From positions 7,375 to 71,374 of the forward strand of contig CAZBLC010000002.1 in NCBI GenBank assembly GCA_964492835.1: a DNA stretch of 64,000 bases. The letters are read 5' to 3'. The notes under the pieces are model-generated. The model saw only the letters and a program-made list of their open reading frames with translations, was not told the DNA's origin and did not search any database. This document shows positions 9,953 through 51,684 of the stretch, one piece after another. The first letter of the stretch is position 1, and each line of letters starts with the position of its first letter. Source of the stretch: an uncultured Candidatus Saccharibacteria bacterium. Its GTDB lineage: Bacteria > Patescibacteriota > Minisyncoccia > Phycocordibacterales > PALSA-1337. A program made the position numbers and the translations under genes.

Positions 9953-11647
9953 CTATATTATATCAACAATTCTTAATCTTAGCTCTGGCCTCCCTCTAAA
10001 CATAGATTTTTCCATACAAGCAATTAAATCCATACTATCCCCCACCTTTAGAGCATTACCAACTCTGTTTTTGAATGTATCCATAGTCATAAAGAAACCA
10101 ATAGCATTAACTATGCTTCCATTTGTTTTCTTGAATTGTAATTCTAAATGATTCTTCTCTTTACCGAATTCCTTTATATTCGAAATACATATGTCTCTAA
10201 AGATAAATATTGGTTTTTCATTACCAGTACCAAATGGAGATAGCCTATCTATTGCATTATATGTACTCCAATCAACATTATCTAATGTTAATTCCATATC
10301 TATATACTTCACTTCTGCAATAACATCATCTTGTGCAAGGAGTTTAAATCCTTCATTCAATCTATCATCTAGATGATGTATATCATCATTAGATACAGCA
10401 AATCCTCCTGATGCACTATGTCCTCCGTACTGAAGCATTGTTCCCACAGGTGCTTTCTTCATAATATCTACAACACTTACTGTTCCTCCAGATCTACATG
10501 ATCCTTTTATAATCCCATCTCCATCTCTCCCCCATAGAAATGCCGGTTTACCATATTCCTCAGCCAAGCTATTAGCAACTAAACCAAGTAGTGATGGTCT
10601 CCATTCTGGATTGCCTATAACTATAACGTTTCTAGGGTCATCCTTATGTCTCTCATTTATTACTTTCTTTATCTCCTTCACCAACTGAGCTACCTTAGTC
10701 TTTCTCTCTGTATTTATTCCATCCAAATGTTTTACATATTCATGTGCCTCTATATCATCATTTGTTGAAAGTAGCTTAAATGCATCCATTGGTACTCCCA
10801 TTCTTGATGCTGCATTAATTCTAGGTGTAATCATAAAACCAATATCATCCTCAGTAATATATCTTTGATCTATTTTTAAATGATTTAGTAATCTAACTAA
10901 TCCTTTTCTAGGACTCATCTTAAGTACCCTTAGTCCAAAATGTGCTAATGCTCTGTTCTCTCCTACAAGCGGTACCATATCAGAGAGTGTTGCAAGGCCT
11001 ACCATATCAAGTAGCCATTTTTCATGTCCCTCCTTCAATCCAAACCTATTAACCTTAAGTATTGCTTGTATTAATTTAAATCCAACACCAGAACCACAAA
11101 GTATCTTTTCTGGATACTCACAACCTTTTTGCTTATGATCCACTATTGCATATGCATCTGGCACTTCGTCATGTGGTTCATGATGGTCGGTGATGATAAC
11201 GTCTATACCATTCTCTTTTGCTTTCTTCACTGCCTCTGTGTCTGAAATACCACAATCGAGAGTAACTAGTAGACTAACTCCGTCCTTAGCAAAAATATCT
11301 ACGGCATCAGTATTTAGTCCAAATCCCTCATCATGTCTATGCGGGATATAGTTTGTAAAATTATTAAAATTTATCTTTTTAAAGAAATCATGAAATACCA
11401 CTCCAGCTGGTATACCATCAGCATCGTAATCGCTGTATATAACTATCTTTTCATTCCCCTCTATTGCCCTTACAATCCTCTCTGCTGCTTTCTTTGCATC
11501 TTTTAGTAGGAATGGATCATGTATATGATTATCGTAGTTTGGGTTGAGGAAGTTGTCCTTGTCCTCTTTAGTCTTTATGCCTCTATAGAAAAGTAGATTG
11601 TCGACTATATCTCCATCTATTCTCTCTCTGACTGAGTATTTTGGCAT
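9953..11647 (-). CDS. recJ: single-stranded-DNA-specific exonuclease RecJ (DHH/DHHA1)
   Basis: 564 aa. …IVIYSDYDADGIPAG… (motif I/II), …VIITDHHEP… (DHH), and a C-terminal OB-like region. Abuts rnhA. Confidence 0.85.
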   Translation of the reverse strand: MPKYSVRERIDGDIVDNLLFYRGIKTKEDKDNFLNPNYDNHIHDPFLLKDAKKAAERIVRAIEGNEKIVIYSDYDADGIPAGVVFHDFFKKINFNNFTNYIPHRHDEGFGLNTDAVDIFAKDGVSLLVTLDCGISDTEAVKKAKENGIDVIITDHHEPHDEVPDAYAIVDHKQKGCEYPEKILCGSGVGFKLIQAILKVNRFGLKEGHEKWLLDMVGLATLSDMVPLVGENRALAHFGLRVLKMSPRKGLVRLLNHLKIDQRYITEDDIGFMITPRINAASRMGVPMDAFKLLSTNDDIEAHEYVKHLDGINTERKTKVAQLVKEIKKVINERHKDDPRNVIVIGNPEWRPSLLGLVANSLAEEYGKPAFLWGRDGDGIIKGSCRSGGTVSVVDIMKKAPVGTMLQYGGHSASGGFAVSNDDIHHLDDRLNEGFKLLAQDDVIAEVKYIDMELTLDNVDWSTYNAIDRLSPFGTGNEKPIFIFRDICISNIKEFGKEKNHLELQFKKTNGSIVNAIGFFMTMDTFKNRVGNALKVGDSMDLIACMEKSMFRGRPELRLRIVDII

Positions 11648-11674: not shown

Positions 11675-12610
11675 CTACCTTACCGCAAACACCAAATCCC
11701 TTCCCTTGTCTCCTGAAACTAGATTACCATCATTATCAACCGTATTTACACTGTATCCATATACCCTATCCATCATATCTATAATTGAATTTCTAGTCTC
11801 TATATTTGATAGCTCACAGATTATATAACTCACTCTTTTGTTTTTTAGAGTTTCTACCATTCCAAAAATTACATCAGACTCAAACCCTTCGACATCTATT
11901 TTTATAACCTTAATATTTTGACTACCTACCAAACTATCTATTGTATCCACCAATACCTCTTGTTCCAGGTTCTCTCTCCCAAATTTTTTCTCTACATCCT
12001 CTCTACTGTATCCATGTATTCCTGTTTTGTAATTTAAGAATGGTAGTAGACTATTACCTCCATGATTAAGTGGATTGATATGTAATGTCATATTCCCCTT
12101 TTTACTACCAATAGCGATATTTCTTAAGTTTGGTTTAAAACCATTAAGTTGGCTGTTGTTACTTAGTAAATTAAAGTTACCTTTTTCTGGCTCACAAGAT
12201 ATTGTATTAGTACCCAAAGATGATGAGAGCATTGTGTAATACCCAACATTAGCTCCAATATCTATGAATCTATCACCATTATGTATTTGTTTACGGATAA
12301 ATTTAGTTAATGATTCCTCATATACTTTCATGAAAAAGAGATTTCTTTGTGTCTTTTCTGATATATCTAATTTCATAACGAATCCTTCAAAATTCTTCTT
12401 GATCCAGAATGGACCACCATTATCTAGCGATATTCTACCTAGTTCCATAAAGAATGGTGATAGCAGAACTCTGACTCGTAATGGGAATTTCCAAGACATC
12501 TTAACTAGAATTACATATAGATTAAACTTAATGTATCTTGGTAGATACTTAATTATATATCCTAGTACATATGCAATTACATTTTCTATATTAAAAAATA
12601 CTTTTTTCAT
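11675..12610 (-). CDS. FkbM-family SAM-dependent methyltransferase
   Basis: 311 aa. FIDIGANVGYYT motif of the FkbM methyltransferase family. Confidence 0.6.
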   Translation of the reverse strand: MKKVFFNIENVIAYVLGYIIKYLPRYIKFNLYVILVKMSWKFPLRVRVLLSPFFMELGRISLDNGGPFWIKKNFEGFVMKLDISEKTQRNLFFMKVYEESLTKFIRKQIHNGDRFIDIGANVGYYTMLSSSLGTNTISCEPEKGNFNLLSNNSQLNGFKPNLRNIAIGSKKGNMTLHINPLNHGGNSLLPFLNYKTGIHGYSREDVEKKFGRENLEQEVLVDTIDSLVGSQNIKVIKIDVEGFESDVIFGMVETLKNKRVSYIICELSNIETRNSIIDMMDRVYGYSVNTVDNDGNLVSGDKGRDLVFAVR

Positions 12611-37960: not shown

Positions 37961-39490
37961 ATGTCATTAAAATTAGTAGCTTTGTTTTTAAGTATCGCTG
38001 GTATAACCGGTATTGGTATCGGTTATTATCTGCGCCTAATTATCTCTCTAGGTAAGAAAGGGTCAATGGAACTAGAGATTAAGGAAATGCTTCTAACTGC
38101 AAAGGAGGAAGCTAAGAGAATTACAACTGAAGCTGATGTTAAATCAGCTAAGTTTCTTGAAGAAGTTAGAGTTGAATCTAAGGAGAAGGAAGACAAGATA
38201 CAGCAAACTGAGGCTAGATTGATCAAGAAGGAGGATCTTCTAGACAAAAGACAGACTGATATAGACAAAGAGATTGAATCTATCAAGCAAAAGGTGGCTG
38301 AAATCAAGGTAATTAAGGAAAGAGCTGATAAATTGGAGGCTGAGAAGGCTCAGGCCCTAGAGAAAGTTGCCCAAATGACTAATGACGAGGCTAAACAGAC
38401 ACTGTTTAAGAATATTGAGAAGAATGTTAGTGATGATCTACTTGCACGTATTTCTAAACTAGAACAGAGTGGCGAGGAGACACTAGAGAAGAAAGCTCAG
38501 GAGATACTCGCTATTTCAATACAGAGACTAGCTAATTCTGTTAATTCAGATGTAATGTCTACATCTATAGCCATAGCTAGTGATGATATAAAGGGTAAGA
38601 TAATTGGTAAGGAAGGTAGAAATATCAAAGCTTTCGAAAGAGCTACTGGTGTTGAGGTTATCGTTGATGATACTCCAGGTTTCATAACAATCTCTTCTTT
38701 TGACCCAGTTAGACGACATATTGCTAAGGTTGCGCTTGAGGAACTGATTAAAGACGGACGTATACAGCCTGCCAAGATTGAGAAGGTAGTAGATGAGTCT
38801 AAGGCTAATATTAATAAGATAATAAAGGAGAAGGGAGAACAAGCGGTATATGAGTGTGGAGTTATAGGTCTAGACCCTCGTATTGTACTAATACTAGGAA
38901 GACTGCACTTCAGAACAAGTTATGGACAGAATGTTTTACAGCATTCTATAGAGATGAGTCACATAGCTGGAATGATTGCTGAGGAAATAGGGGCTAATGT
39001 TGCTGTAGCTAAAGCTGGTGCCCTTCTACATGACCTAGGTAAAGCTCTAGATCATGAGGTTTCAGGTACACATGTTGAGATTGGTAGAAGAATATTGCAA
39101 AAGTTTGGTGCTAGTGAGGATATTGTGAAAGCAATGCAAGCTCATCATGAGGAATATCCTTATGAAACAGTTGAATCACGTATAGTACAGACTGCTGACG
39201 CTATATCTGGAGCTAGACCTGGAGCTAGACATGATAGTATAGAGAACTATCTAAAGAGACTAGGTGATCTAGAAGCTATTGCTAACAACTTCCCTGGTGT
39301 AGAGAAGTCATATGCCCTACAAGCTGGACGTGAGATACGTATATTCGTGACTCCAGAGAAGGTTACTGATCTTGAAGCGAAGAATATGGCAAGAGATATT
39401 GCACTGAAGATTGAGAAGGATCTTAAATATCCAGGAGAGATTAAGGTAACTATCATACGTGAGACTAGAGTAATTGACTTTGCTAGGTAA
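37961..39490 (+). CDS. rny: ribonuclease Y
   Basis: 509 aa. N-terminal TM, coiled coil, KH domain (…IIGKEGRNIKAFERATGVEVIVDD…), HD domain (…LLHDLGKALDHE…). Confidence 0.9.
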   Translation: MSLKLVALFLSIAGITGIGIGYYLRLIISLGKKGSMELEIKEMLLTAKEEAKRITTEADVKSAKFLEEVRVESKEKEDKIQQTEARLIKKEDLLDKRQTDIDKEIESIKQKVAEIKVIKERADKLEAEKAQALEKVAQMTNDEAKQTLFKNIEKNVSDDLLARISKLEQSGEETLEKKAQEILAISIQRLANSVNSDVMSTSIAIASDDIKGKIIGKEGRNIKAFERATGVEVIVDDTPGFITISSFDPVRRHIAKVALEELIKDGRIQPAKIEKVVDESKANINKIIKEKGEQAVYECGVIGLDPRIVLILGRLHFRTSYGQNVLQHSIEMSHIAGMIAEEIGANVAVAKAGALLHDLGKALDHEVSGTHVEIGRRILQKFGASEDIVKAMQAHHEEYPYETVESRIVQTADAISGARPGARHDSIENYLKRLGDLEAIANNFPGVEKSYALQAGREIRIFVTPEKVTDLEAKNMARDIALKIEKDLKYPGEIKVTIIRETRVIDFAR

Positions 39491-39523
39491 AATAATTTAG
39501 AAATAAAAAAATAGACAAAACAA

Positions 39524-39549
39524 AACCGCATGGCGAACCATGCGGTTTG
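39524..39549. terminator. hairpin terminator at the rny / GC-rich island junction (functional mainly on minus strand)
   Basis: aaaccgcatggcgaaccatgcggttt. On the minus strand it is followed by uuuuguuuugucuauuuuuuu. Only a short U stretch follows on the plus strand. Confidence 0.6.
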
Positions 39550-39558
39550 AGGGTGGCC

Positions 39559-40011
39559 TTACTTTGAGAAGACCACGAACTCATAGGGGGAAATGAAAAT
39601 CTTTCCCCCGATCTTACTAATCGGCAATTCCACCCAATCATACCGCTTTGGATGGTGAGGGTGGGGATCCATGTTCAAAGTTGGCACATGGAGAATCTCA
39701 CTCCGTGCCAAAGTGACACGTGACACCGACCGACGGATCTTGCCTCTGTGCTTGAGACACAGAAGCCGACTTACCGGTGCATCCTTGCGACGACATTCCT
39801 TACGAAACATCTCCTTCGCAAAATTATCCACCTCGCCACTGCCGGCGAATTTGGAATACCCAAGCCCTCGAGCACACGCCCGAATTTGAGCGAGGGTATA
39901 ATACCCTCCTTGAGTATTCCACGGGCACACAGCAATCTGCTCTGTGCCAAACCAAACACTACCAATCGGAAGAACTTCAATCTTCATCTTATGTGATTTC
40001 CAATTTTTCAA
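39559..40011 (-). CDS. hypothetical protein, GC-rich island gene 4
   Basis: 150-aa ORF (internal alternative start MKIEVLP…). About 50% GC against the one-third-GC host. Cys/His-containing. No motif recognised. Confidence 0.35.
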   Translation of the reverse strand: MKNWKSHKMKIEVLPIGSVWFGTEQIAVCPWNTQGGYYTLAQIRACARGLGYSKFAGSGEVDNFAKEMFRKECRRKDAPVSRLLCLKHRGKIRRSVSRVTLARSEILHVPTLNMDPHPHHPKRYDWVELPISKIGGKIFISPYEFVVFSK

Positions 40012-40099
40012 CCGACTCTATGAATCCACAATAATCTTTCAATTATGGACTCAAAAAAGTGAAGGATTTTTGCATCAGAATCCTCCAAAAACTCGAACA

Positions 40100-40954
40100 T
40101 CACCTAGGTTTGACAATCACTCCAGCAAACCCACGAACCGGATCGCCATAAGGTTCACCGACCCGATTTGGGAAAGTGGCCGCCCATGACATAAAATCCT
40201 GCACGATCTTAGGGGCCGTGTGTCCACCGAGAACAATCTTCCTATTGCCTGTCGGCTTTTGTGTCCGATCCTTGTCACAAATATCAGCCACGTAGGACTC
40301 ACCGGACCTAAGAGCTGCCTCTGGCAACTCTTCCACAAATCCAATGGTCCGCAGATCGCGGACTCCGTTATCAAACTTGGGAGCGGACTTGAGTATGGTC
40401 ACCGCCTTCCCAATGATTGCTTCCAGGATCCCAGGATCAGCCTTGTGGGCCAGACTCGGAATCCCTGCGTAGAACGCCACCTTCTCCGAAAGACGATGGA
40501 GACGAATGGCATCCGGGGTCACCATCTGGCACCGGCCAGCGTAAGCGGCGGCTGGACAATGGTCGCTTGCTGCGACCAAGAGTTGATACTCCGTCGGCTT
40601 GAGGCCGAGAAACATCAACAACTGTCCGAGGGATGAACCTTCGAAATACAGTTCAGGCGGAAACCCGAATCCGTAATCCCCAGGATTATGGTGGTCGCAA
40701 CGCGCGACCACCTCGAGCGAACCGGCGCATGCCGGATTGCATTCGAAGATAATGGCTCCGGTCAACTCTTCAGCTAACCCACCATCAACCACAAATCCGT
40801 CAGCCTTGTAGGCAGTGCTGGCCGAAACCAGCTGACCTTGAAATGTCGCCGTGGCGACAATATAGCCGACCGATTCAGCCGCCTTCCGGGCTTCTGCTTC
40901 CTCAACATCAGTCATACCGAAGATGACTACCGTATTTTTAGGTATAGCTTTCAT
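40100..40954 (-). CDS. divergent DHH/DHHA1-like phosphoesterase (island gene 3)
   Basis: 284 aa. FVVDGG (motif II-like Asp), VVARCDHHNPGDYG (DHH motif III) and KIVLGGHTAPK (GGGH-like DHHA1 motif) appear in the canonical order. High GC. Confidence 0.45.
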   Translation of the reverse strand: MKAIPKNTVVIFGMTDVEEAEARKAAESVGYIVATATFQGQLVSASTAYKADGFVVDGGLAEELTGAIIFECNPACAGSLEVVARCDHHNPGDYGFGFPPELYFEGSSLGQLLMFLGLKPTEYQLLVAASDHCPAAAYAGRCQMVTPDAIRLHRLSEKVAFYAGIPSLAHKADPGILEAIIGKAVTILKSAPKFDNGVRDLRTIGFVEELPEAALRSGESYVADICDKDRTQKPTGNRKIVLGGHTAPKIVQDFMSWAATFPNRVGEPYGDPVRGFAGVIVKPR

Positions 40955-41090
40955 CTTTTTTACTTGTCGAGATTTTCCTTTAGATCCACCACATCATGTG
41001 ACAGATCTATTAAGAAACCCGAATTCACGAATCGGGTTCTGGTTTACAACTTAGTAAACCTCGGCGTGTTTAGGTAACACGCGACCATCT

Positions 41091-41579
41091 TTACTTCAGC
41101 CATGAGAGCGTCGTAGCCTCACGGTCAAGTCTTCCGAGAGTTGGGTGGGTGAGGTCGCCTATGCCAAGCTTTGAAAAATAGTTGGCAAATTTTGATACCG
41201 TCCACTCTTCATAATGACTGAACTCCCAGTCATTACAGCAACCGCCACTCATGTCGTCGTAGATCGCGACGGTGCCCTTCTCCTCACCATACTGGGCGAG
41301 GAAAATTTTGTTTTGAGCCTCCAACTTGTCGAGGAATCTCTTCCTCGCAAGAAGCTCGAGATCTGAACCAAGTAGATTCAGACGTTCGTCGTCATCCCAG
41401 ACCAGATCAATGATCTGGCCCACCTCGAGGTGGTAAAGGGTGGTCGAAACAACCCCATGATCTCCACCACCACGAAAGATGTGGACTGCCACGTGTTGGT
41501 AGGCCTCACCCGGAGCGAAGCTCCAGGAGAGAACGCGTCCTTTGACGCGTTGGCCTTTTTTGCTAAAAAACCAAGACAT
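41091..41579 (-). CDS. hypothetical protein, GC-rich island gene 2
   Basis: 162-aa ORF. High GC. No motif recognised. Confidence 0.35.
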   Translation of the reverse strand: MSWFFSKKGQRVKGRVLSWSFAPGEAYQHVAVHIFRGGGDHGVVSTTLYHLEVGQIIDLVWDDDERLNLLGSDLELLARKRFLDKLEAQNKIFLAQYGEEKGTVAIYDDMSGGCCNDWEFSHYEEWTVSKFANYFSKLGIGDLTHPTLGRLDREATTLSWLK

Positions 41580-41887
41580 AATAAATTTTCCTTCTCAGAA
41601 TCACACTTGCACCAACAATAGGTACAATATGCAATCCCTCTTACCCCACCAATGTTTAAGTTTTTTACGCTATCTATATAGTGAGGCGAAGAGGAATAAC
41701 ATTGCAGTTGTCTGTTTACACAGACCATTGTTCTGCGTTCTCCATATTCGCTATTTAGTTATCAAATAACTTTCTGCTTTTCGATCCTTTTGGACCTTCA
41801 TCAGTCGGAATGCACATTCCGAGAAGCAACCCATTCGCTCAATGGGTAGAGTTAAGTTTTCTAGGTTCACCTACAACCTTGCCACGA

Positions 41888-42268
41888 CTAGTAGCTGTGG
41901 AGCTCCCGAAAGCCAGCGAATGAGAAGACGAGCTCCTTCTTCACCGTGCCATCAGACTGGGGAATGTCTTTCGACACTCGAGGGGTCACCGACTCCACCA
42001 GCTTAGCACCGGTCTTACGGCCGATGGCGTTGATGGCAGCGGCCAGCTGTTGCTGGCCCATGCAGTGGAGGGTGTCCCCCTCCTTGATGCCACCGACTGC
42101 GGTGACCACTGCCTCGGCCCGCTGGACGAACCAGTCACGGCTGAGGTTCGCGTCGTCCGGCACCACCAAGAGTTTCTTGTCCTGGAGCTGGACCACCTCG
42201 CCAACCGCCTGAGCGGCAGCGATCTGGTCGGCGGTAGGAGCGTGTTGCATGACAAAGATGAATTTCAT
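41888..42268 (-). CDS. hypothetical Rossmann-like small protein (island gene 1)
   Basis: The track ORF extends to 42451. The likely start is MKFIFVMQHAPTADQ… at 42268, just after the GC transition. The alpha/beta pattern (…KKLLVVPDD…GDTLHCMGQQQLAAAINAIG…) suggests a Rossmann-like or SLOG-like fold. No firm family. Confidence 0.35.
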   Translation of the reverse strand: MKFIFVMQHAPTADQIAAAQAVGEVVQLQDKKLLVVPDDANLSRDWFVQRAEAVVTAVGGIKEGDTLHCMGQQQLAAAINAIGRKTGAKLVESVTPRVSKDIPQSDGTVKKELVFSFAGFRELHSY

Positions 42269-42452
42269 GGCTAAAATGTCAACTATACTCAGGTAGTAAA
42301 GCGTAAGTGCTTCCTTTTCCTTTGTATCTTGTATAATCATAACACAATGAACACATTTGTCAATTGGTGTTATTCGTATTTTCCTTGTTAAATAACAATA
42401 TTCGTAATATACTTGTCTTGTATGCTTAATATTGTCATAACTTTGTAACAAA

Positions 42453-43208
42453 ATGAATGAGAAAGTACTAATAGACTGTGGTTTGAGTTTAGAGCAAGCA
42501 AAAATATATACCTATATAATAACGAATGGTCTTTCTACTGCAAAGGTAATATCATCCATAACCGGTGTAGGTAGAGCGCTAACATACAAGATATTAGATC
42601 AATTAGAGGGTTTTGATCTGGTTGAAAAGAGAGAGGACATTAGTAAGATAGCCCTTTTCTCCCCCAAACACCCAAGAAATCTTAAAAATATGATAGATGA
42701 GAAGAAAAGGGGTCTAGAGCATGCGTATAACGATTTTAATAAAGTATATGGACTTCTCTCTTCAGAGTTCAACGCACTTATTGGAAGACCGAATGTTCAG
42801 TTCTACGACGGAGTCGAGGGTATATCGAAGGTACATGAAGACATATTAGATGTAGCTCAAGACATAATGGTCATAAGTTCACCAATTAAAGAAGGGCGTC
42901 AAGAAGTATTGCATTTAATAAAGGAACAGATTGAAAAGCAGGTCGCAAAGAATATCAAGACTAAAGCCATAGCACCACACTTAGATGGGCAAAAAATTGC
43001 TACACCAATCGAGGAGGACGAAAAGTATCTTATTACTAGAAAGAAGGTTTCTATAGATAAATTGAATATTCCAGCCCAAATTATTCTATATGGCGATAAG
43101 GTATCAATAACAAACTTCAAGGAAAACATTATTACTGTTGTTATAGAGAGTAGACACATAACTGAAACGTTTAGAGTAATGTTCAATTATATTTGGAATC
43201 ACGACTGA
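42453..43208 (+). CDS. TrmB-family HTH transcriptional regulator
   Basis: 251 aa. N-terminal wHTH …LSLEQAKIYTYIITNGLSTAKVISSITGVGRALTYKILDQLEGFDLVEK… is typical of TrmB-type regulators. C-terminal effector-domain-like region. Confidence 0.6.
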   Translation: MNEKVLIDCGLSLEQAKIYTYIITNGLSTAKVISSITGVGRALTYKILDQLEGFDLVEKREDISKIALFSPKHPRNLKNMIDEKKRGLEHAYNDFNKVYGLLSSEFNALIGRPNVQFYDGVEGISKVHEDILDVAQDIMVISSPIKEGRQEVLHLIKEQIEKQVAKNIKTKAIAPHLDGQKIATPIEEDEKYLITRKKVSIDKLNIPAQIILYGDKVSITNFKENIITVVIESRHITETFRVMFNYIWNHD

Positions 43209-43644: not shown

Positions 43645-43929
43645 TCACTCCCCTTCCTCACTCTTTGTTAAACTCAAGCTACCATCCTTAGCAATCTTAA
43701 TCTCTACCACTCTGTGTTTATCTACTTCACTAGTAAAAGTGAATATTCTACCCTCTCTAGTCATTGTATAGTTACCAATATCACATCTATTCTCACTAAT
43801 TGAACAGAATTTATCCATTCTATCCATAACCTTATTCAAATTTGACTGGGTATTAAGTCGTATACTAAAAAGTATAACGACAAGGATGATTGTAAGAAAA
43901 ATAAGTGTTCCTCTTAAAAATCCGTTCAT
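43645..43929 (-). CDS. small membrane-anchored hypothetical protein
   Basis: The track ORF 43645-43980 reads into tRNA-Trp. The plausible start is MNGFLRGTLIFLTIILVVILF… at 43929. Single TM. Confidence 0.35.
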   Translation of the reverse strand: MNGFLRGTLIFLTIILVVILFSIRLNTQSNLNKVMDRMDKFCSISENRCDIGNYTMTREGRIFTFTSEVDKHRVVEIKIAKDGSLSLTKSEEGE

Positions 43930-44002
43930 GGTGCGGGACGGGGGAATCGAACCCCCATCTACACATTGGAAGTGTGTCATTTTACCACTAAACTAGTCCC
44001 GC
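43929..44002 (-). tRNA. tRNA-Trp (anticodon CCA), 3' CCA encoded
   Basis: Reverse complement GCGGGAC-TA-GTTT-AGTGGTA-AAAT-G-ACACA-CTTCCAA-TGTGT-AGATG-GGGGG-TTCGATT-CCCCC-GTCCCGC-A-CCA folds as a cloverleaf. The anticodon loop CTTCCAA gives CCA. Confidence 0.85.
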
Positions 44003-44045
44003 TTATATTAAAATTTAAGAACTTTATCTATACTAGCAAGAATTT

Positions 44046-44495
44046 TTAATTTTTGCCACTATTCTCGCCTGTTTGTGGATGATTATGCTTTATCTCCTCC
44101 TTTATCTCATCCATCTCCTTCTTGATATCCAATATTGCTTCTTCTAGAACTACTATCTCCTTTTCTTCTTCTTCTATATCCTTCTTTGTCTTGTCAGCAC
44201 TCTTCTTCTGTTGCTTAAGTCCTGATATTAGGATTGTATCTCCAATGAAGTACGAAACAAACAATCCTGTAGCTAGAAGTATTACTACGGTAATGATCAT
44301 ACTTACTGGTTCATAGAAAAGAAAACCTAGTATTCCCCCTTTAGCTTGTAGTATGTCTGCTGTATGCCATATACCCCTCCAAAACAATACTATGGCCACA
44401 CTACCTATTAGAGTATATACAACCGGGAAACGACTTAAATTCCCTCTTACACCATCTTCAAATTTATCAAAAAAATCTACAACCTTTTTAATCAT
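44046..44495 (-). CDS. hypothetical membrane protein with C-terminal acidic coiled coil
   Basis: 149 aa, two TM segments, E/K-rich tail. Confidence 0.4.
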   Translation of the reverse strand: MIKKVVDFFDKFEDGVRGNLSRFPVVYTLIGSVAIVLFWRGIWHTADILQAKGGILGFLFYEPVSMIITVVILLATGLFVSYFIGDTILISGLKQQKKSADKTKKDIEEEEKEIVVLEEAILDIKKEMDEIKEEIKHNHPQTGENSGKN

Positions 44496-44507
44496 AAATG
44501 TATTATA

Positions 44508-45872
44508 TCATCCCTTTGGATCAAAAATAGAGGGATTAGGGTTTTCTCCAGACAAAATTCTAGAAATTCTGCGTCCTCCATATACAGACGGTATGATTCC
44601 TATACCATTGCAACCCAAGTTGTATAGCAATACCCTATTTTTTGGTTCCGCTCCTATTAATCTAATTCTATTAGGTGTGTAACCCATAAGACCGTGCCAT
44701 GTAAACTCATAGTCAATCTTACGGTTAGGATCAGAATCATATTCTTTCTTAATAAATTGATCTATTTTTGTAGGAATTTCATCTGGATAATCATAATTCC
44801 TCATATACTCAGCTTTATCATCCAGAGCTATCTCTGGTCCTCCCATACATACCAAGTTATGCTTCTTATCGCCATACTCATGAGGTCTTCTGGTTAGATA
44901 CAAGTACTCTGCCTTTGGGTCAGTTGGGTCATAATCATCAGTCCAATATGCTATAGCAGTTGGTGGTTTGTTTATATTCTCTAGATATCCAGACATATAA
45001 CCAACAGTTCCACCAACTAAGTGGTGAAAGTTCTTGTCTATAGCCAATCCACCGTCATTAAATATATCGAAATTCTCAAATCCATTTGTGCACAAAATTA
45101 TCTTACTAGCGTTTATCGTATGCTTTTCCACATCAAGTAGTCCGTGTTTCTCCTTCAGAACTATCTTGTTGACCCTAGTTTCTTCATACAAAGTGAATCT
45201 ATCCTTATACTTTTCCAACAAGAACAGAGCTATCTCCTGACAGAACAAAGCTGAATTCATACATGCCGCATCGTCTGAGTATAGGGCGTGAAAACTTTCA
45301 TCTTTTGTCTCCATCCTCTTTAATATTTCAGACTGTGGAACTAGTCTATACAGATTCTTGTAAATCCTAGGTATTGAATCCACAAAAGGTGCTGTTTCAC
45401 TAACTAAAAAAGTATTTTGATGTATTCCTGATCTAACTTCCATCTCTAAATCTCCAAGAGCCCTCAAGACTTGGTAAAGGTTTGAATATCCTATGTTTCC
45501 CTTAGTCTTAGAGAAGACTATATCAAGCTTTGCATCCTCATACATTTCGTCTATGAGTAACCAAGTTGAATTTAGAGCTTGTATAGCATCTTTTGTCATA
45601 TCAAATCCAAACTCTTTCTCTATATCAACCAATGGTCTTTCGAAACGTGCCACTACTTGTCCGGCATTATGACCTGTTGCACCATGAGCCAATCTTCCCT
45701 GGTCTAATATGACTACCCTTTGCTTAGTATATTTGAGAGTAAAGAAAGCTGTAGATATTCCAGCTATCCCCGCACCGATAATAGCGACATCAGTATCTAA
45801 ATCCTTATTAAGAGAGATAGATTTCCTCTCATGATCTAGTTGATGTATCCACGGTGACTTATTAATTCTCAT
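44508..45872 (-). CDS. FAD-dependent oxidoreductase (DAO family)
   Basis: 454 aa. N-terminal dinucleotide-binding motif DVAIIGAGIAGISTA. …LDQGRLAHGATGHNAGQVV…. Confidence 0.7.
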   Translation of the reverse strand: MRINKSPWIHQLDHERKSISLNKDLDTDVAIIGAGIAGISTAFFTLKYTKQRVVILDQGRLAHGATGHNAGQVVARFERPLVDIEKEFGFDMTKDAIQALNSTWLLIDEMYEDAKLDIVFSKTKGNIGYSNLYQVLRALGDLEMEVRSGIHQNTFLVSETAPFVDSIPRIYKNLYRLVPQSEILKRMETKDESFHALYSDDAACMNSALFCQEIALFLLEKYKDRFTLYEETRVNKIVLKEKHGLLDVEKHTINASKIILCTNGFENFDIFNDGGLAIDKNFHHLVGGTVGYMSGYLENINKPPTAIAYWTDDYDPTDPKAEYLYLTRRPHEYGDKKHNLVCMGGPEIALDDKAEYMRNYDYPDEIPTKIDQFIKKEYDSDPNRKIDYEFTWHGLMGYTPNRIRLIGAEPKNRVLLYNLGCNGIGIIPSVYGGRRISRILSGENPNPSIFDPKG

Positions 45873-45918
45873 AAAAAAACAAATTTTATGAGTAGATTAT
45901 ACCACAAACACTTTATTG

Positions 45919-45991
45919 TCGGAGCGCCGGGATTCGAACCCGGAGTCGCCTCTTCCCAAAAGAGGAATGTTAGCCGTTACACCACGCTCCG
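45919..45991 (-). tRNA. tRNA-Pro (anticodon TGG)
   Basis: Reverse complement CGGAGCG-TG-GTGT-AACGGCTA-ACAT-T-CCTCT-TTTGGGA-AGAGG-CGAC-TCCGG-GTTCGAATC-CCGGC-GCTCCG-A folds as a cloverleaf with the anticodon loop TTTGGGA. No CCA encoded. Confidence 0.8.
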
Positions 45992-46263
45992 ATATAGAGA
46001 TTATACTAGCATATGGATTATATAAAAGCCAAAATAATATAGTTATTGATACGCAAGCACCACTATTAGAGACGTGACCCTTATGTTCTTAAGCATCACA
46101 GGACATGTCCACAATAACAATTCCTATATTTCTACATGGTTATAAACAGACAGTGTTTATAACCTAAAAAGACAAAGGACACGAATATAGGCCATATTTT
46201 GTCTGTCTTATACCCACTATCCCCAATGTTATCCACAGTTTTACATAAAGTACCTACAAAATG

Positions 46264-46334
46264 TGCGGGTAGCGAGACTCGAACTCGCATTTTAACATTG
46301 GCAATGTCATGTTCTGCCCTTAAACTATACCCGC
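46264..46334 (-). tRNA. tRNA-Gly (anticodon GCC)
   Basis: Reverse complement GCGGGTA-TA-GTTT-AAGGGCAGAACA-TGACA-TTGCCAA-TGTTA-AAAT-GCGAG-TTCGAGT-CTCGC-TACCCGC-A. The anticodon loop TTGCCAA gives GCC. Confidence 0.8.
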
Positions 46335-47021
46335 AATGTAATTTTCCTGACTTAATTCGATAGCAAGCATCTCAATCCACTTCATAATCTTGCATTTTAA
46401 GTATGCACTAGAAACTCCAACACTGCAAACTCCGTATGATAATCTTCGAGTCTTGTGTTTGCCCAGTATAACCATACTCTTATTGAAATCCTCCGGTTTT
46501 AAGCCAGCATTATTAATCCAGTATTCTTTACACTTATCCTCATCTAAATCAGGATACAAAAGCAACCAAGCCTTCATCTTAGGACCTTCAAAACCACAAA
46601 TATTCTTTAAGAAACTCAAGAATAGCTTGATCATCAAAGGCTCAGTATTAGCAACACAACAATTGCTTTTAGAACTTTTATTACCCTCTCCCCAATAGAT
46701 CATTAAGCCAGATATAAACAGAGGGTGATACTTCAACAGATCAAACTCTTCAATCGCTTCCTTTCTAGCCTGCTCGTATAGTTGTTTAAGGTTATCACCT
46801 CTTATCTTATTAAGTCTCTGTATACGAACAATATGTGACTTCTTTGCCCTTTCTGAGAGTTTTTTAGATAGATCATTTGACCAATTCTGGTTTCTAAACC
46901 AGTCAGAAAGCGTGCTTTTAGGAACTCCTAATTCCGAAGCTATCTGATTATAGCTCTTTCCATCTCTTCTAAGTGATATAGCTTGTTCCTTATCTTTACG
47001 CATATGTGTAAAGTATATCAC
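46320..47021 (-). CDS. HTH + LAGLIDADG-like putative homing-endonuclease-family protein (copy B)
   Basis: 233 aa. N-terminal HTH (…ISLRRDGKSYNQIASELGVPKSTLSDWF…). Central …LFISGLMIYWGEGNKS… resembles a single LAGLIDADG helix with conserved acidic Glu before Gly. Paralog of 47158-47835. The last five codons and the stop lie inside the tRNA-Gly 5' region. Confidence 0.45.
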   Translation of the reverse strand: MIYFTHMRKDKEQAISLRRDGKSYNQIASELGVPKSTLSDWFRNQNWSNDLSKKLSERAKKSHIVRIQRLNKIRGDNLKQLYEQARKEAIEEFDLLKYHPLFISGLMIYWGEGNKSSKSNCCVANTEPLMIKLFLSFLKNICGFEGPKMKAWLLLYPDLDEDKCKEYWINNAGLKPEDFNKSMVILGKHKTRRLSYGVCSVGVSSAYLKCKIMKWIEMLAIELSQENYIAGIV

Positions 47022-47079
47022 ACGAGTTCGGTAAGCAAAAGTTAGAAATCTTATGTCTAATTTTTAAAGTATATCTTTG

Positions 47080-47151
47080 TGCACCCGGAGGGACTCGAAC
47101 CCCCAATAAATGCTTCGAAGGCACTTGTGATATCCATTTCACTACGGGTGC
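47080..47151 (-). tRNA. tRNA-Arg (anticodon TCG)
   Basis: Reverse complement GCACCCG-TA-GTGA-AATGGATA-TCAC-A-AGTGC-CTTCGAA-GCATT-TATTG-GGGGG-TTCGAGT-CCCTC-CGGGTGC-A. The anticodon loop CTTCGAA gives TCG. Confidence 0.75.
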
Positions 47152-50727: not shown

Positions 50728-51684
50728 TTACTCACTCTTCCTATGGAATTTCTTATGTATCTTCTTTAATTCAGTATCAGTAACATGTGTATATATCTGA
50801 GTAGTATTTATATTTGCATGTCCTAATAGCATCTGTACTGAGCGTAGATCAGCTCCATTACGTAATAAGTCAGTAGCAAAGCTATGCCTAATCACGTGAG
50901 GTGTGACTTTCTTAGAAATACCAGAGTTAATAGCATATTGCTTTATAATCCTCTCTACAGACCTTGAAGTAATCCTTAATGAATCCTTGTTTTTAGCCAA
51001 TTTCTCTCCCTCCTTGATCTGAATGAATAGGGCATCGTCCATATCATCCCTCTTATCAAGCCATTTCTGTACAGCAATACGCGCATCGTCAGAGATAAAC
51101 ACAACTCTAACCTTTTCTCCCTTACCACGTATAGACATTTCATCAAGTTTTAAGTTGATATCCCTTGGAAGTGAACATAGTTCTGAAACACGCAGTCCTG
51201 TAGAGAAAAGTAGCTCAAGCATTGCCTTGTCACGCAATCCTCTCAGAGTAGAAGTATCTGGAGCCTTCATTATAAGATTAAGTTCCTCTATCGTAATCAA
51301 ATCTAGTGATCTTTCTGGTACTTTAGCCAACTCGATGCGGTCTGGTGATAGGGAAGTGATGTTTTGTCTAGCCAAATACTTCAAGAAAGCACGTATAGCA
51401 ATTAAATAGTAATTCTGTGTCTTCTTCTTGAGAGTAGTTAATGCTTTTCCTTTTTCACTCTTAGTTTCTTGTCTGTTTAGCCATATACGGAAGTCTCGAA
51501 CAACTGAATCAGTAATATCCTTAGGGTCCTTTAGCTTAGTATAGTCTAGGAAACGGCTCAGATACTGGTCATAGTTACGCACTGTATTTAGACTTCTTCC
51601 TTTCTCTATCTCTACATACTGTAAAAACTCAGTTTTTAGGGATAATAGATTTTGCGACATGGTTAAAGTATACAGTATATTCAA
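50728..51684 (-). CDS. xerC: tyrosine recombinase XerC/XerD-like
   Basis: 318 aa. N-terminal SAM-like core-binding domain. C-terminal catalytic domain with R…K…HxxR…LLGHANINTTQIYTHV. Confidence 0.75.
   Translation of the reverse strand: MNILYTLTMSQNLLSLKTEFLQYVEIEKGRSLNTVRNYDQYLSRFLDYTKLKDPKDITDSVVRDFRIWLNRQETKSEKGKALTTLKKKTQNYYLIAIRAFLKYLARQNITSLSPDRIELAKVPERSLDLITIEELNLIMKAPDTSTLRGLRDKAMLELLFSTGLRVSELCSLPRDINLKLDEMSIRGKGEKVRVVFISDDARIAVQKWLDKRDDMDDALFIQIKEGEKLAKNKDSLRITSRSVERIIKQYAINSGISKKVTPHVIRHSFATDLLRNGADLRSVQMLLGHANINTTQIYTHVTDTELKKIHKKFHRKSE

Follow-up and report, generated by a model that had tools for sequence, protein, structure and literature searches.

The GC-rich island at 39555–42270 of the window (the whole 64-kb stretch of DNA that was analyzed) forms the variable arm, made up of cargo genes, of an accessory locus that is anchored by TrmB and known from several ultra-small CPR bacteria. 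Homology, fold and catalytic residues identify two of its four cargo proteins as metal-dependent or CARF-type phosphodiesterases, with substrates that would be nucleotide immune signals. The preferred reading, to which a probability of about 0.5 is given, is that of a TrmB-gated, ribozyme-cut accessory array, placed near rny and HU in several CPR genomes, whose enzymes would erase such signals, probably as counter-defence.

Composition and Borders of the Island

The island has 43–64% GC, compared with 30–40% in its surroundings. In 300-nt windows, GC climbed at 39550 from 0.38–0.41 to 0.51, reached maxima of 0.58 at 40300–40750 and 0.64 at 41950–42250, and was 0.30 at 42250, so the original prediction of an abrupt rise at 39555 and a return near 42270 was borne out. 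No 600-nt stretch outside the island exceeded 0.46 in the 64-kb window. Codon usage deviated in the same manner: the GC3 values of genes A, B, C and D were 0.52, 0.55, 0.58 and 0.79, against a mean of 0.288 (sd 0.052, maximum 0.496) for the 42 other ORFs, i.e., the island ORFs had z = 4.5–9.6 and are of foreign composition. The spacers separating them have native GC (0.29–0.41). It is a puzzle of genome evolution that the cargo ORFs hold a GC3 of 0.5–0.8 in genomes near 0.3 and next to spacers that are AT-rich.

An rRNA-like or other known ncRNA element as the cause of the GC shift, which the original prediction had itself raised, was rejected: Rfam reported only four tRNAs at the gathering score, and nothing credible within 39400–42500 at E ≤ 10. 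The four ORFs, all on the minus strand and called at first with 150, 284, 162 and 126 aa, are indeed present, the first of them being better read as 142 aa from the ATG at 39987.

Concerning the origin of the island, neither structural genes of phages nor integrase or transfer genes were found in or adjoining it, and the earlier observation that it adjoins neither integrase nor transposase was confirmed. The sole tyrosine recombinase of the window is XerC/D-like (50731–51684) and lies 8.4 kb off. Integron gene cassettes were rejected, as there is no intI beside the array and that distant enzyme is the nearest tyrosine recombinase. No att-type or direct repeats were found flanking the island. 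A sequenced phage as the source of a recent insertion was also rejected, with zero matches of the island (blastn) or of B (tblastn) to 50,697 phage records. At the rny side there is a bidirectional intrinsic terminator hairpin (39523–39548, both strands; 11-bp stem with 6 GC pairs, T-runs on both strands). The strong terminator ascribed to the cassette thus exists, but its place is between rny and A, which converge on it, and it is terminator-like on both strands, so that it would serve rny as well and is not the island's alone.

The TrmB Anchor and the Conservation of the Locus

The TrmB-family regulator (42453–43208, plus strand; Pfam TrmB 36.1 bits, cut-off 25.6) has native composition and is divergent from the cargo. 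Homologues of it adjoin D at L008, L066, L067 and, twice, L068; B at L002, L004 and L071; and A at L072/L073. At other loci, A, B and D each take the first position on the divergent side of TrmB, usually near rny/HU and in CPR genomes, so TrmB belongs to the module. The view that the island was simply inserted between rny and TrmB does not hold, because the pairing of TrmB with divergent cargo is itself conserved.

D and the array have a sigma-70 promoter close to consensus (42336–42363, minus strand; TTGACA-16-TATGAT with TG upstream, 11/12 matches), which is kept in the orthologous TrmB–cargo spacers of L072/L073, L068 and L067 and has the inverted repeat ATAACAC/GTGTTAT around it. Pointing away from TrmB, it would drive a minus-strand transcript D-C-(B-A), and TrmB, judging from its position, presumably represses it. 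Compared with acr-aca operons, the adjacency of TrmB is conserved and there are inverted repeats at the promoter, but TrmB is no known Aca and is divergently transcribed.

The cargo itself is not conserved as a set. Among 11 independent CPR loci having B or D, no other locus has both, and tblastn of A–D against every locus fetched never found two of the four together. A conserved four-gene system was therefore rejected, as no pair co-occurs elsewhere and C has no homologue. The original prediction had pictured a compact four-gene cassette that resembles nucleotide-signalling antiphage defence or toxin-immunity modules and is a candidate for an undescribed system, while naming co-occurrence in other genomes as a check and its lack as evidence to the contrary. 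The compact, same-strand arrangement, the foreign composition and the nucleotide-signalling affinities of two of the genes agree with that picture. Nevertheless, it is very improbable: the genes are not co-conserved, none of them has a domain of a signal synthase or cyclase, of a sensor or of a toxic effector, the PADLOC search found Csx20 as the only system component, and both recognizable proteins would degrade signals. The proposed link to nucleotide-signalling immunity is real, since B and D resemble the signal-degrading enzymes of type III CRISPR. According to the preferred reading, the cargo genes would have been taken singly from a GC-rich pool partly common to phages and shuffled between loci.

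Cargo Genes A and C

Gene A (39559–39987, minus strand, GC3 0.52) was first called as 39559–40011, with 150 aa from a TTG; its homologues favour the ATG at 39987, which gives 142 aa. It has two real homologues (65% and 54% identity, 60 invariant columns), one of which, P0197, is directly divergent from a TrmB 59% identical to that of the window and lies beside HU and rny. A 1412-aa candidate (P0199) was rejected as a partial, spurious match to a repeat protein. Gene C (41091–41579, minus strand, 162 aa) is an orphan, its sole match among 5.8 billion proteins being itself; its GC1/GC2/GC3 of 0.58/0.38/0.58 is coding-like, and AAGGA stands 9 nt ahead of its ATG. Neither A nor C matched Pfam, PHROGs, PADLOC, NCBIfam or PDB sequences, in agreement with the earlier statement that these two are unassignable.

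Gene D, a Csx20-Like CARF Protein

Gene D (41888–42268, minus strand, 126 aa) encodes a Csx20-like protein of CARF fold, predicted to be a ring nuclease. The public call of 187 aa from a TTG is too long, because the homologues have 120–134 aa. D matched the PADLOC Csx20 model with E = 4e-5, and 31 of 31 family members matched Csx20 models (best 2e-8). Of the 74 listed homologues, 72, the window protein among them, carry a record of Pfam PF27247. Against NCBIfam NF040559 (Csx20), D scored 21.5 bits for a cut-off of 70. On these profile matches, D is classed as a divergent branch of Csx20 and not as an equivalog. The fold is CARF-like, a derived Rossmann fold resembling Crn1 (Sso2081), so that what had been described as a small Rossmann/SLOG-like ligand-binding protein can be named more exactly as a CARF-fold relative of Csx20.

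Csx20 is a cA4 ring nuclease by experiment (PMC12409355), and regulator-controlled anti-defence operons of phages include csx20 homologues (PMC13551039). From the stand-alone cA4 ring nuclease Csx20 (MJ1673), D differs in falling below the curated equivalog cut-off and in having neither a CRISPR locus nor viral copies: no type III CRISPR locus was found at or near D or its homologues, and no D relatives in viral contigs. From the phage acr-aca14 csx20 operons it differs in its regulator, a divergent TrmB instead of an RHH protein of the same operon. D is also rare, with 74 relatives in 5.8 billion clusters and 4 loci in 185,579 species genomes, and several CPR lineages keep it in synteny with TrmB, HU and rny. 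Its GC3 is 0.74–0.82 in AT-rich genomes; this high GC3 persists even though synonymous sites are close to saturation, so that recent transfer explains it only in part.

Gene B, an NrN-Like DHH/DHHA1 Protein

Gene B (40100–40954, minus strand, 284 aa, GC3 0.55) encodes a predicted NrN-like DHH/DHHA1 phosphodiesterase. The three motifs FVVDGG, CDHHNPGDYG and LGGHTA were all found in it, as were DHH motif III and the acidic motifs I, II and IV. Throughout 46 sequences of the family, D16, E18, E71, D87-H88-H89 and D131 are invariant, and G244 of the C-terminal LGGH motif is nearly so. The family profile run against the PDB gave NrN as the top match, marginal (E = 1.3e-3) and confined to the N-terminal domain, with the motifs in register. 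The AF2 model (pLDDT 95.9) was compared at full length with Foldseek, which placed NrN first (E = 5e-6, TM 0.50–0.56) and Borrelia DhhP second, with probabilities of 0.99–1.0. The model, the Foldseek matches and LGGH agree on a two-domain DHH plus DHHA1 fold, so fold and catalytic motifs concur in upholding the DHH/DHHA1 assignment of the original prediction. The family escapes Pfam: B matched neither DHH (PF01368) nor DHHA1 at the curated threshold or even at E ≤ 1, one of 46 family members touched PF01368 (E = 0.0024), and none of the 130 relatives found among 5.8 billion clusters carries a Pfam domain.

In its best reading, based on sequence and model, B has its closest solved relative in NrN, which in type III-B CRISPR acts as the SAM-AMP phosphodiesterase, and may have a similar substrate. 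NrN is both the best solved full-length fold match and the top profile match; its mutated residues E21, D85/H86/H87 and D119 correspond to the invariant E18, D87/H88/H89 and D131 of B, and in both proteins DHH motifs I and II take the DxE/E form. On the other hand, sequence identity is only about 14–15%, the TM score is only 0.5, B has the additional invariant residues C72, H132, C133 and C142 and a C-terminal GGH...RGFAG signature, and the family sits in phage contigs and CPR genomes, not in CRISPR loci. There are no corA or cmr genes near B, and neither corA nor type III-B cas genes appear in the gene lists of the homologue loci. Relatives of B occur at 54 viral-contig loci, with neighbours that match PHROG replication and methyltransferase families and with no neighbour conserved among the viral contigs. 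A search of BFVD with B gave only generic viral DHH proteins, and no published literature on this NrN-like family was found.

Possible Roles of the Phosphodiesterases

It seems reasonable to propose that D, like the cA4-cleaving Csx20, and B, like the SAM-AMP-cleaving NrN, would erase nucleotide immune signals. A more ordinary role would be nucleotide housekeeping or salvage, with B as a nanoRNase or pApA/c-di-AMP phosphodiesterase and D as a nucleotide-binding protein, in a host without de novo nucleotide synthesis. This is quite improbable in view of the rarity and patchiness of both families, the foreign codon usage, the occurrence of the B family in phages, the specific match of every D member to Csx20 models, and the unusual motif variants shared by B and NrN.

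If immune signals are the substrates, the enzymes could also serve the cell itself, D and B acting in trans to reset the cell's own signalling by cyclic oligoadenylates or SAM-AMP, whose source would be a type III CRISPR or comparable system elsewhere in the genome, with TrmB coupling them to cell state. Csx20 and NrN are as a rule enzymes of the host, associated with CRISPR (PMC12409355, PMC10600005), and 31 type III CRISPR loci have a ring nuclease without a known effector (PMC12409355). The synteny of D over several CPR lineages, together with its absence from viruses, is more in keeping with a host gene than with one recently mobilized. As to the immune system to be reset, the 64-kb window, beyond which the rest of the genome is out of view, contains no CRISPR array, and cas10, CorA and a CARF effector are not among the best 25 PADLOC and Pfam families listed for it, the others being housekeeping; a type III CRISPR or CBASS locus may lie outside. 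None of cas10, CorA, a CARF effector or a CRISPR array was found in the approximately 15–20 kb read around the 11 related loci either. This, the frequency of the B family in phage contigs, and a cargo that differs by genome, with B and D together nowhere else, make such a reset of host signalling fairly unlikely. Counter-defence derived from mobile elements is favoured over it.

With AcrIII-1, the phage SAM-AMP lyase AcrIIIB4 and the Acb1/Apyc1-type phosphodiesterases, the island would share the principle of a stand-alone remover of an immune messenger, located in an accessory region outside an immune locus. It differs in that the protein families are unrelated, save for the Csx20 and NrN analogies. 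If counter-defence is the correct reading, relatives of both known type III CRISPR off-switches, the cA4 ring nuclease and the SAM-AMP phosphodiesterase, circulate as free-standing cargo in bacteria mostly without such CRISPR, one of the families being also present in dozens of uncultivated phages. The NrN-like proteins, some 130 homologues without a Pfam domain, would then form a candidate anti-signalling enzyme family.

Structured RNAs in the Spacers

The spacers contain structured RNAs, which were absent from the original prediction and are the most distinctive anatomy of the locus. In the D–C spacer there is a type III hammerhead ribozyme (41770–41834, minus strand), with predicted cleavage after C41823, 65 nt beyond the D stop. 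The core CUGAUGA...GAAA, stems I, II and III, and the loops closing I and II are all present. As MAFFT misaligns its stem III, the window copy was tested instead against a covariance model made of 8 sibling copies from which it had been left out; it scored 54.1 bits over the full length (E ≈ 1e-13–1e-14). The siblings are 94.5% paired, with compensatory changes in 11 of 16 pairs, a result equalled in none of 500 shuffles. Rfam RF00008 did not report the window copy within 39400–42500 even at E ≤ 10, and gave sibling copies 39.6 and 37 bits, where the gathering score is 48.5. Between A9 and stem II, the window copy carries an additional A, an insertion adjacent to the core that may impair cleavage; it also has one added G·U pair.

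Just upstream of the cleavage site there is a stable hairpin (41829–41847, minus strand), with ACCCAUUGAGCGAAUGGGU in the window and ACGCAUUGAGUCAAUGCGU at the orthologous site of L068, so that the two differ in a compensatory manner; most of the listed sibling hammerheads have a corresponding hairpin ahead of them. The ribozyme would cut the transcript past D, leaving a D mRNA capped at its 3′ end by this hairpin, while the downstream RNA would start just upstream of the element E1 described below and lead into C. At the sibling locus L068, at least five hammerheads lie between cargo genes; the window has only one.

In prophages, clustered hammerheads lie on either side of single variable genes, among them the anti-restriction gene ardA, as in A. 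tumefaciens (Perreault et al. 2011, PMC3088659). Like them, the present ones are of type III, on the coding strand and between varying accessory genes, with cargo of anti-defence type and an implied cutting of polycistronic RNA into gene-length mRNAs. They differ in that the locus is chromosomal, belongs to CPR bacteria and has no phage genes; in the TrmB anchor, the preceding hairpin and the position of some copies near or before E1; and in the single window copy with its 1-nt insertion. The locus would thus be a natural case of hammerheads punctuating an accessory operon outside prophages.

E1 (41596–41755, minus strand) is a conserved multi-hairpin element of about 160 nt with a core hairpin at 41634–41697. 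A 77-nt part of it is 95% identical to L070, and more copies occur in L066, L007, L068, L008 and 23 further metagenome contigs. The core hairpin is 92.1% paired, a value that drops to 38–52% if the pairing partners are displaced by sliding, and it has 54 double changes where shuffles give 21 ± 4, the counting being restricted to P1–P3 because MAFFT misaligned the P0 stem. The loop AUAGCGUAAnAAACUU is invariant, the stems covary and the hairpins are GNRA-capped; U·G pairs are invariant, which assigns the structure to the minus strand. An integron attC site, which would have conserved ends and a variable centre, was rejected on the grounds of the invariant loop, the covarying stems, the strand-specific G·U pairs and the lack of flanking direct repeats. 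E1 is absent from Rfam, and would be a structured RNA new to that collection. It is also absent from viral contigs, and hammerheads are absent from 53 viral loci bearing B relatives, which indicates that the RNA architecture belongs to the CPR loci and not to the phage loci of B relatives.

A bolder extension, unlikely as it stands, is that E1 and the hammerhead-hairpin junctions constitute a hitherto unrecognized, CPR-specific cassette system that swaps single GC-rich ORFs, as units with these RNA elements at their ends, between TrmB-gated arrays, E1 being a new RNA class (a ribozyme, or a 5′-end or translation control element) and the NrN-like family a new, widespread group of immune-signal erasers of phages and CPR bacteria.

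The two remaining spacers are structured as well. The B–C spacer (40955–41090, minus strand) is strongly so, with a folding z of −5.2 for the minus strand and −4.1 for the plus strand; it has no Rfam match and no similarity to other loci. The A–B spacer gave z = −3.6 on the minus strand only. It contains a terminator-like hairpin with a U-run after B (40053–40086, minus strand; GGAGGAUU...AAUCCUUC then ACUUUUUUG); beyond it, at 40042–40015, A has a weak promoter-like site.

Composition of the island and its surroundings

In 300-nt windows, the GC content rises from about 0.40 to 0.51 at 39550, reaches maxima of 0.58 and 0.64, and falls to 0.30 at 42250; outside the island, no 600-nt stretch of the 64-kb window exceeds 0.46. 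The shift is confined to four minus-strand ORFs, A (39559-39987), B (40100-40954), C (41091-41579) and D (41888-42268), with GC3 values of 0.52, 0.55, 0.58 and 0.79, respectively, against a mean of 0.288 ± 0.052 and a maximum of 0.496 for the other 42 ORFs of the window. The spacers separating A-D are of native composition (GC 0.29-0.41). Both the GC profile and the GC3 values thus bear out the GC-rich island of the original prediction. Rfam and ARAGORN searches of the whole window returned four tRNAs, all outside the island. Since both searches were blank within it, rRNA or a known ncRNA is ruled out as the cause of the shift, which, being restricted to the four ORFs, is a coding one. The strong terminator that had been taken as the cassette's own is present at 39523-39548, but it is shared, working on both strands between the convergent genes rny (RNase Y) and A.

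The rest of the window holds the housekeeping genes of a small-genome bacterium (EF-G, S7/S12, PGK, TIM, ClpP, RNase Y, HU, trigger factor, NusA, ComEC and type IV pilus genes). The named sources of relatives of the island genes are Candidatus Moran-, Nomura- and Taylorbacteria and Saccharibacteria. The sole tyrosine recombinase of the window (50731-51684, minus strand) has an XerC/D-like architecture (Phage_int_SAM_1 plus Phage_integrase) and lies 8.4 kb off the island, for which reasons it is probably housekeeping. The four tRNA genes (Gly-TCC, Pro-TGG, Gly-GCC and Arg-TCG) are scattered at 43929-47151 (minus strand), on the far side of HU. Genes of this kind often serve as integration targets; no repeat joining these four to the island was found.

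Protein B is NrN-like

Concerning protein B (284 aa), the Pfam DHH model does not recognise its family, and none of its 130 homologues carries a Pfam domain. When the family profile was compared with the PDB, a single family was matched, that of NrN (9lq9, E = 1.3e-3), a type III-B CRISPR phosphodiesterase that degrades SAM-AMP specifically (PMC10600005). The GxxDxE, motif-II Glu, DHH, SxLxQ and AAxD elements are in register. In an alignment of 46 B sequences, D16, E18, E71, D87-H88-H89, D131, C133 and C142 are invariant, and the C-terminal signature is Y-G-x-P-x-R-G-F-A-G. Counted along the profile alignment, E18, D87-H89 and D131 correspond to NrN E21, D85-H87 and D119, precisely the positions mutated by Chi et al. 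2023 (PMC10600005) and in the crystal entries of NrN. The best solved fold matches of the AlphaFold model of B (pLDDT 95.9) were four NrN entries (E = 5e-6 to 3.5e-5, TM 0.49-0.56, about 290 columns), followed by Borrelia DhhP. So, the assignment of the 284-aa protein to the DHH/DHHA1 phosphoesterases was right, and profile, catalytic residues and fold sharpen it to NrN-like.

Residues 72, 132, 133 and 142 of B (in FEC, DHC and GxC) are near-invariant or invariant Cys and His with no counterpart in the aligned NrN; they may form an additional metal site. No corA or cas genes accompany the B family. CP064973 is an example of a complete or near-complete genome in which the family occurs.

Relatives of B occur in 54 viral contigs of IMG/VR (25-41% identity). 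The PHROG families near them are DNA methyltransferases, helicases, a Holliday-junction resolvase, a Sak4-like annealing protein, a replication initiator and ParA, with no single neighbour conserved across the viral contigs. The family was absent by tblastn from 50,697 deposited phage genomes, and a BFVD search with B returned only generic viral DHH proteins.

Proteins D, A and C

Protein D (126 aa) matched Csx20 over the full model length, with E = 4e-5 for the PADLOC model and E = 2.4e-4, under the model's cut-off, for that of NCBIfam; all 31 aligned members of its family (31/31) matched Csx20, the best at 2e-8. In the source database the family carries Pfam PF27247 "MJ1673". Csx20 is by experiment a cA4 ring nuclease, the commonest one in type III loci (PMC12409355), and csx20 homologues have been noted in phage anti-defence operons under regulator control (PMC13551039). 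The branch of D is small, with 74 relatives; the search of 185,579 species genomes gave 4 loci, and that of viral contigs gave none. The ATG at 42268 is supported as the start of D by the length of its homologues (120-134 aa) and by a confidently modelled first strand. The public call, 187 aa from a TTG (41888-42451), spans the promoter region.

Protein A (142 aa) has two real homologues (65% and 54% identity, 60 invariant columns), and for C (162 aa) none was found among 5.8 billion clusters. Neither matched the family libraries or PDB sequences; the codon-position GC of both is coding-like.

A TrmB-anchored accessory locus

The four genes had been proposed to form an undescribed system, but they are not co-conserved: among the related loci compared (here given by L numbers such as L002; CPR are the ultra-small bacteria), no other pairs any two of A-D. 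What recurs is a TrmB-family regulator divergent from the first cargo gene. This gene is D in the window, L008/L009, L066, L067 and L068 (twice); B in L002, L004 and L071 (3 of 5 independent contexts); and A in L072/L073, where TrmB is 59% identical to that of the window and HU and rny are adjacent. In L068 (8350-18565), between rny and HU, two inverted TrmB-D modules with D copies of 63% mutual identity enclose some 7 kb of small unknown genes, and the right-hand module is the counterpart of the D-TrmB-HU stretch of the window. From this recurrence and correspondence, the locus is a variable accessory region with TrmB as anchor, usually beside rny/HU. Through its inverted modules, L068 could be prone to inversion or recombination of its cargo.

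The TrmB of the window is of native composition and scores 36.1 bits in Pfam. A promoter is predicted for D at 42363-42336 (TTGACA-16-TATGAT, with an upstream TG); it is kept in the orthologous spacers, with inverted repeats on its flanks, which fits repression by TrmB through putative binding there.

Stretches of 0.9-1.3 kb without a called gene separate TrmB from the first cargo gene at L002:3661-4858, L071:6662-8001 and L008:6119-7001. The D-proximal part of this gap is occupied in L008, L010 and L066 by the RNA element E1; the rest of these stretches gave no Rfam match. In L004 (5256-5639), a bAvd / 23S_rRNA_IVP gene lies between TrmB and cargo that includes a B homologue. bAvd is an accessory protein of diversity-generating retroelements; no reverse transcriptase was found within 8 kb of this gene.

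Hammerhead ribozymes and the E1 element

Minus-strand folding of the spacers was more stable than that of shuffled sequences (z = -5.7 for D-C, -5.2 for B-C and -3.6 for A-B), and the D-C spacer contains two conserved RNA elements. The first, at 41770-41834 (minus strand), is a predicted type III hammerhead, identified by core motifs, stems and covariance model. It runs through stem III (UUGCUU/AAGCAG), the predicted cleavage site after C41823, stem I (UCGGAAU...AUUCCGA), CUGAUGA, stem II (GGUCC/GGAUC) and GAAA. In eight sibling hammerheads from related loci, 94.5% of cells are paired and 11 of 16 pairs show compensatory changes; none of 500 shuffles did as well, and slid partners gave 31-53% paired. 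A covariance model built from these siblings, with the window copy left out, found that copy at full length (54.1 bits, E≈1e-13-1e-14) and as its only match in the 36-46 kb part of the window. In this copy an additional A follows A9, a position where sibling L069:3601 likewise has an extra base, and stem II is longer by one G·U pair. The window copy is missed by the Rfam hammerhead model, under whose gathering threshold the siblings score, and its cleavage is a prediction from sequence.

In the related CPR loci, canonical type III hammerheads form arrays among small cargo genes. At least five separate the cargo genes of L068 (15249-17146, minus strand; 11961-12022, plus strand), and others lie at L067:10705-10766, L069:9903-9965 and 10545-10606, L070:7685-7746, L066:7824-7885, L008:13877-13962, L082:3917-3978 and L086:1315-1376. 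Two copies have an insertion of about 25 nt in stem II. A stable hairpin precedes the window copy and most siblings, and in this hairpin the window and L068 differ by a compensatory change. In the cargo regions, a twister-P1-like match (L066:12951-13073, plus strand; 32.4 bits, E = 0.004) stays under gathering, and a DUF3800-IX RNA over gathering (L008:9958-10026, minus strand) adjoins a DUF3800 gene.

The second element, E1, is a multi-hairpin RNA of about 160 nt (about 41596-41755, minus strand), recognised by conservation and covariation and not found in Rfam 15. Its 77-nt core is 95% identical to that of L070 and recurs in L066, L007, L068 and L008 (copies at L070:6329-6477, L066:4242-4390, L007:5565-5712 and L068:9661-9808). 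A pattern scan added 23 metagenome contigs (L075-L097), for a total of at least 29 loci, and found none in viral contigs. The long hairpin P1-P3 is 92.1% paired, compared to 38-52% with slid partners, and has 54 double-sided changes versus 21 ± 4 in shuffles; since its U·G pairs are invariant, the structure belongs to the coding strand. The sequence of the terminal loop, AUAGCGUAAnAAACUU, is likewise invariant. Other parts of E1, seen by inspection, are a second motif, AAUAGCGAA, upstream, a covarying P0 stem (GCAG/CUGC, GGAG/CUCC, GCGG/CCGC), often around a GNRA-capped hairpin, a 3' hairpin, and GAUUCCUNA. The gene downstream is C in the window, D in L008 and L066, and a distant B-like gene in L078 and L082. 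Four further contigs have E1 close to TrmB, and in L082 and L086 hammerheads follow E1.

Proposed function of the cargo

The observed anatomy, homologies, conserved catalytic residues, RNA structures and comparative pattern suggest the following working. TrmB would gate the strong promoter of the cargo array; the D-C-(B-A) transcript would be cut by the hammerhead, leaving the upstream mRNA with its 3' end capped by the preceding hairpin; D would hydrolyse a cA4-like second messenger, and B a SAM-AMP-like messenger or another conjugate or oligonucleotide. Such hydrolysis might also be nucleotide housekeeping, which seems unlikely, or a trans-acting off-switch of the host, a somewhat better but still doubtful candidate.

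No cyclase, sensor or effector was found in the 64-kb window, among the matches listed, or in the related loci, and the defence or toxin-immunity system of the original prediction is very improbable. The layout of the hammerheads matches one described in prophages, in which multiple copies flank single variable genes, including the anti-restriction gene ardA, and were shown to cleave the polycistronic RNA (Perreault et al. 2011, PMC3088659). The absence of those components, the phage-borne B family and this parallel to hammerhead-flanked accessory and anti-defence genes argue for cargo of a signal-erasing, counter-defence type, to which we give a probability of about 0.5.

Since each component has known relatives (NrN, Csx20, hammerhead-flanked gene blocks and regulator-linked anti-defence operons), the locus is no new category. 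What is new is an NrN-like family away from CRISPR loci, the CPR hotspot anchored by TrmB, E1 and a persistent GC3 anomaly. The locus has more structure than an ordinary island and lends itself better to testing.

Persistence of the GC-richness

The GC content of B homologues in CPR is 0.11-0.14 above that of their surroundings. In 25 of the 54 viral loci listed, it is just 0-0.04 above that of the contigs, most of them GC-rich already, though in certain viral loci the gap is as large as in CPR. The GC3 of D was measured in eight copies (window, L007, L008, L010, L066, L067, L068 and L069) from genomes of 37-51% GC; it was 0.74-0.82 in six copies, while the remaining two had 0.66 and 0.54. The spacers are AT-rich. 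Codons are identical at only about 35-70% of identical residues, so the synonymous sites of D are largely saturated while GC3 remains high. The GC-richness of the cargo is therefore not simply due to recent transfer; candidate explanations are a common pool of GC-rich mobile genes or a recombination hotspot with GC-biased conversion. The rny genes of L008 and L010 (900-2400) and of L068 (3853-5379) are about 0.10 above their neighbours in GC, which is not so for rny of the window.
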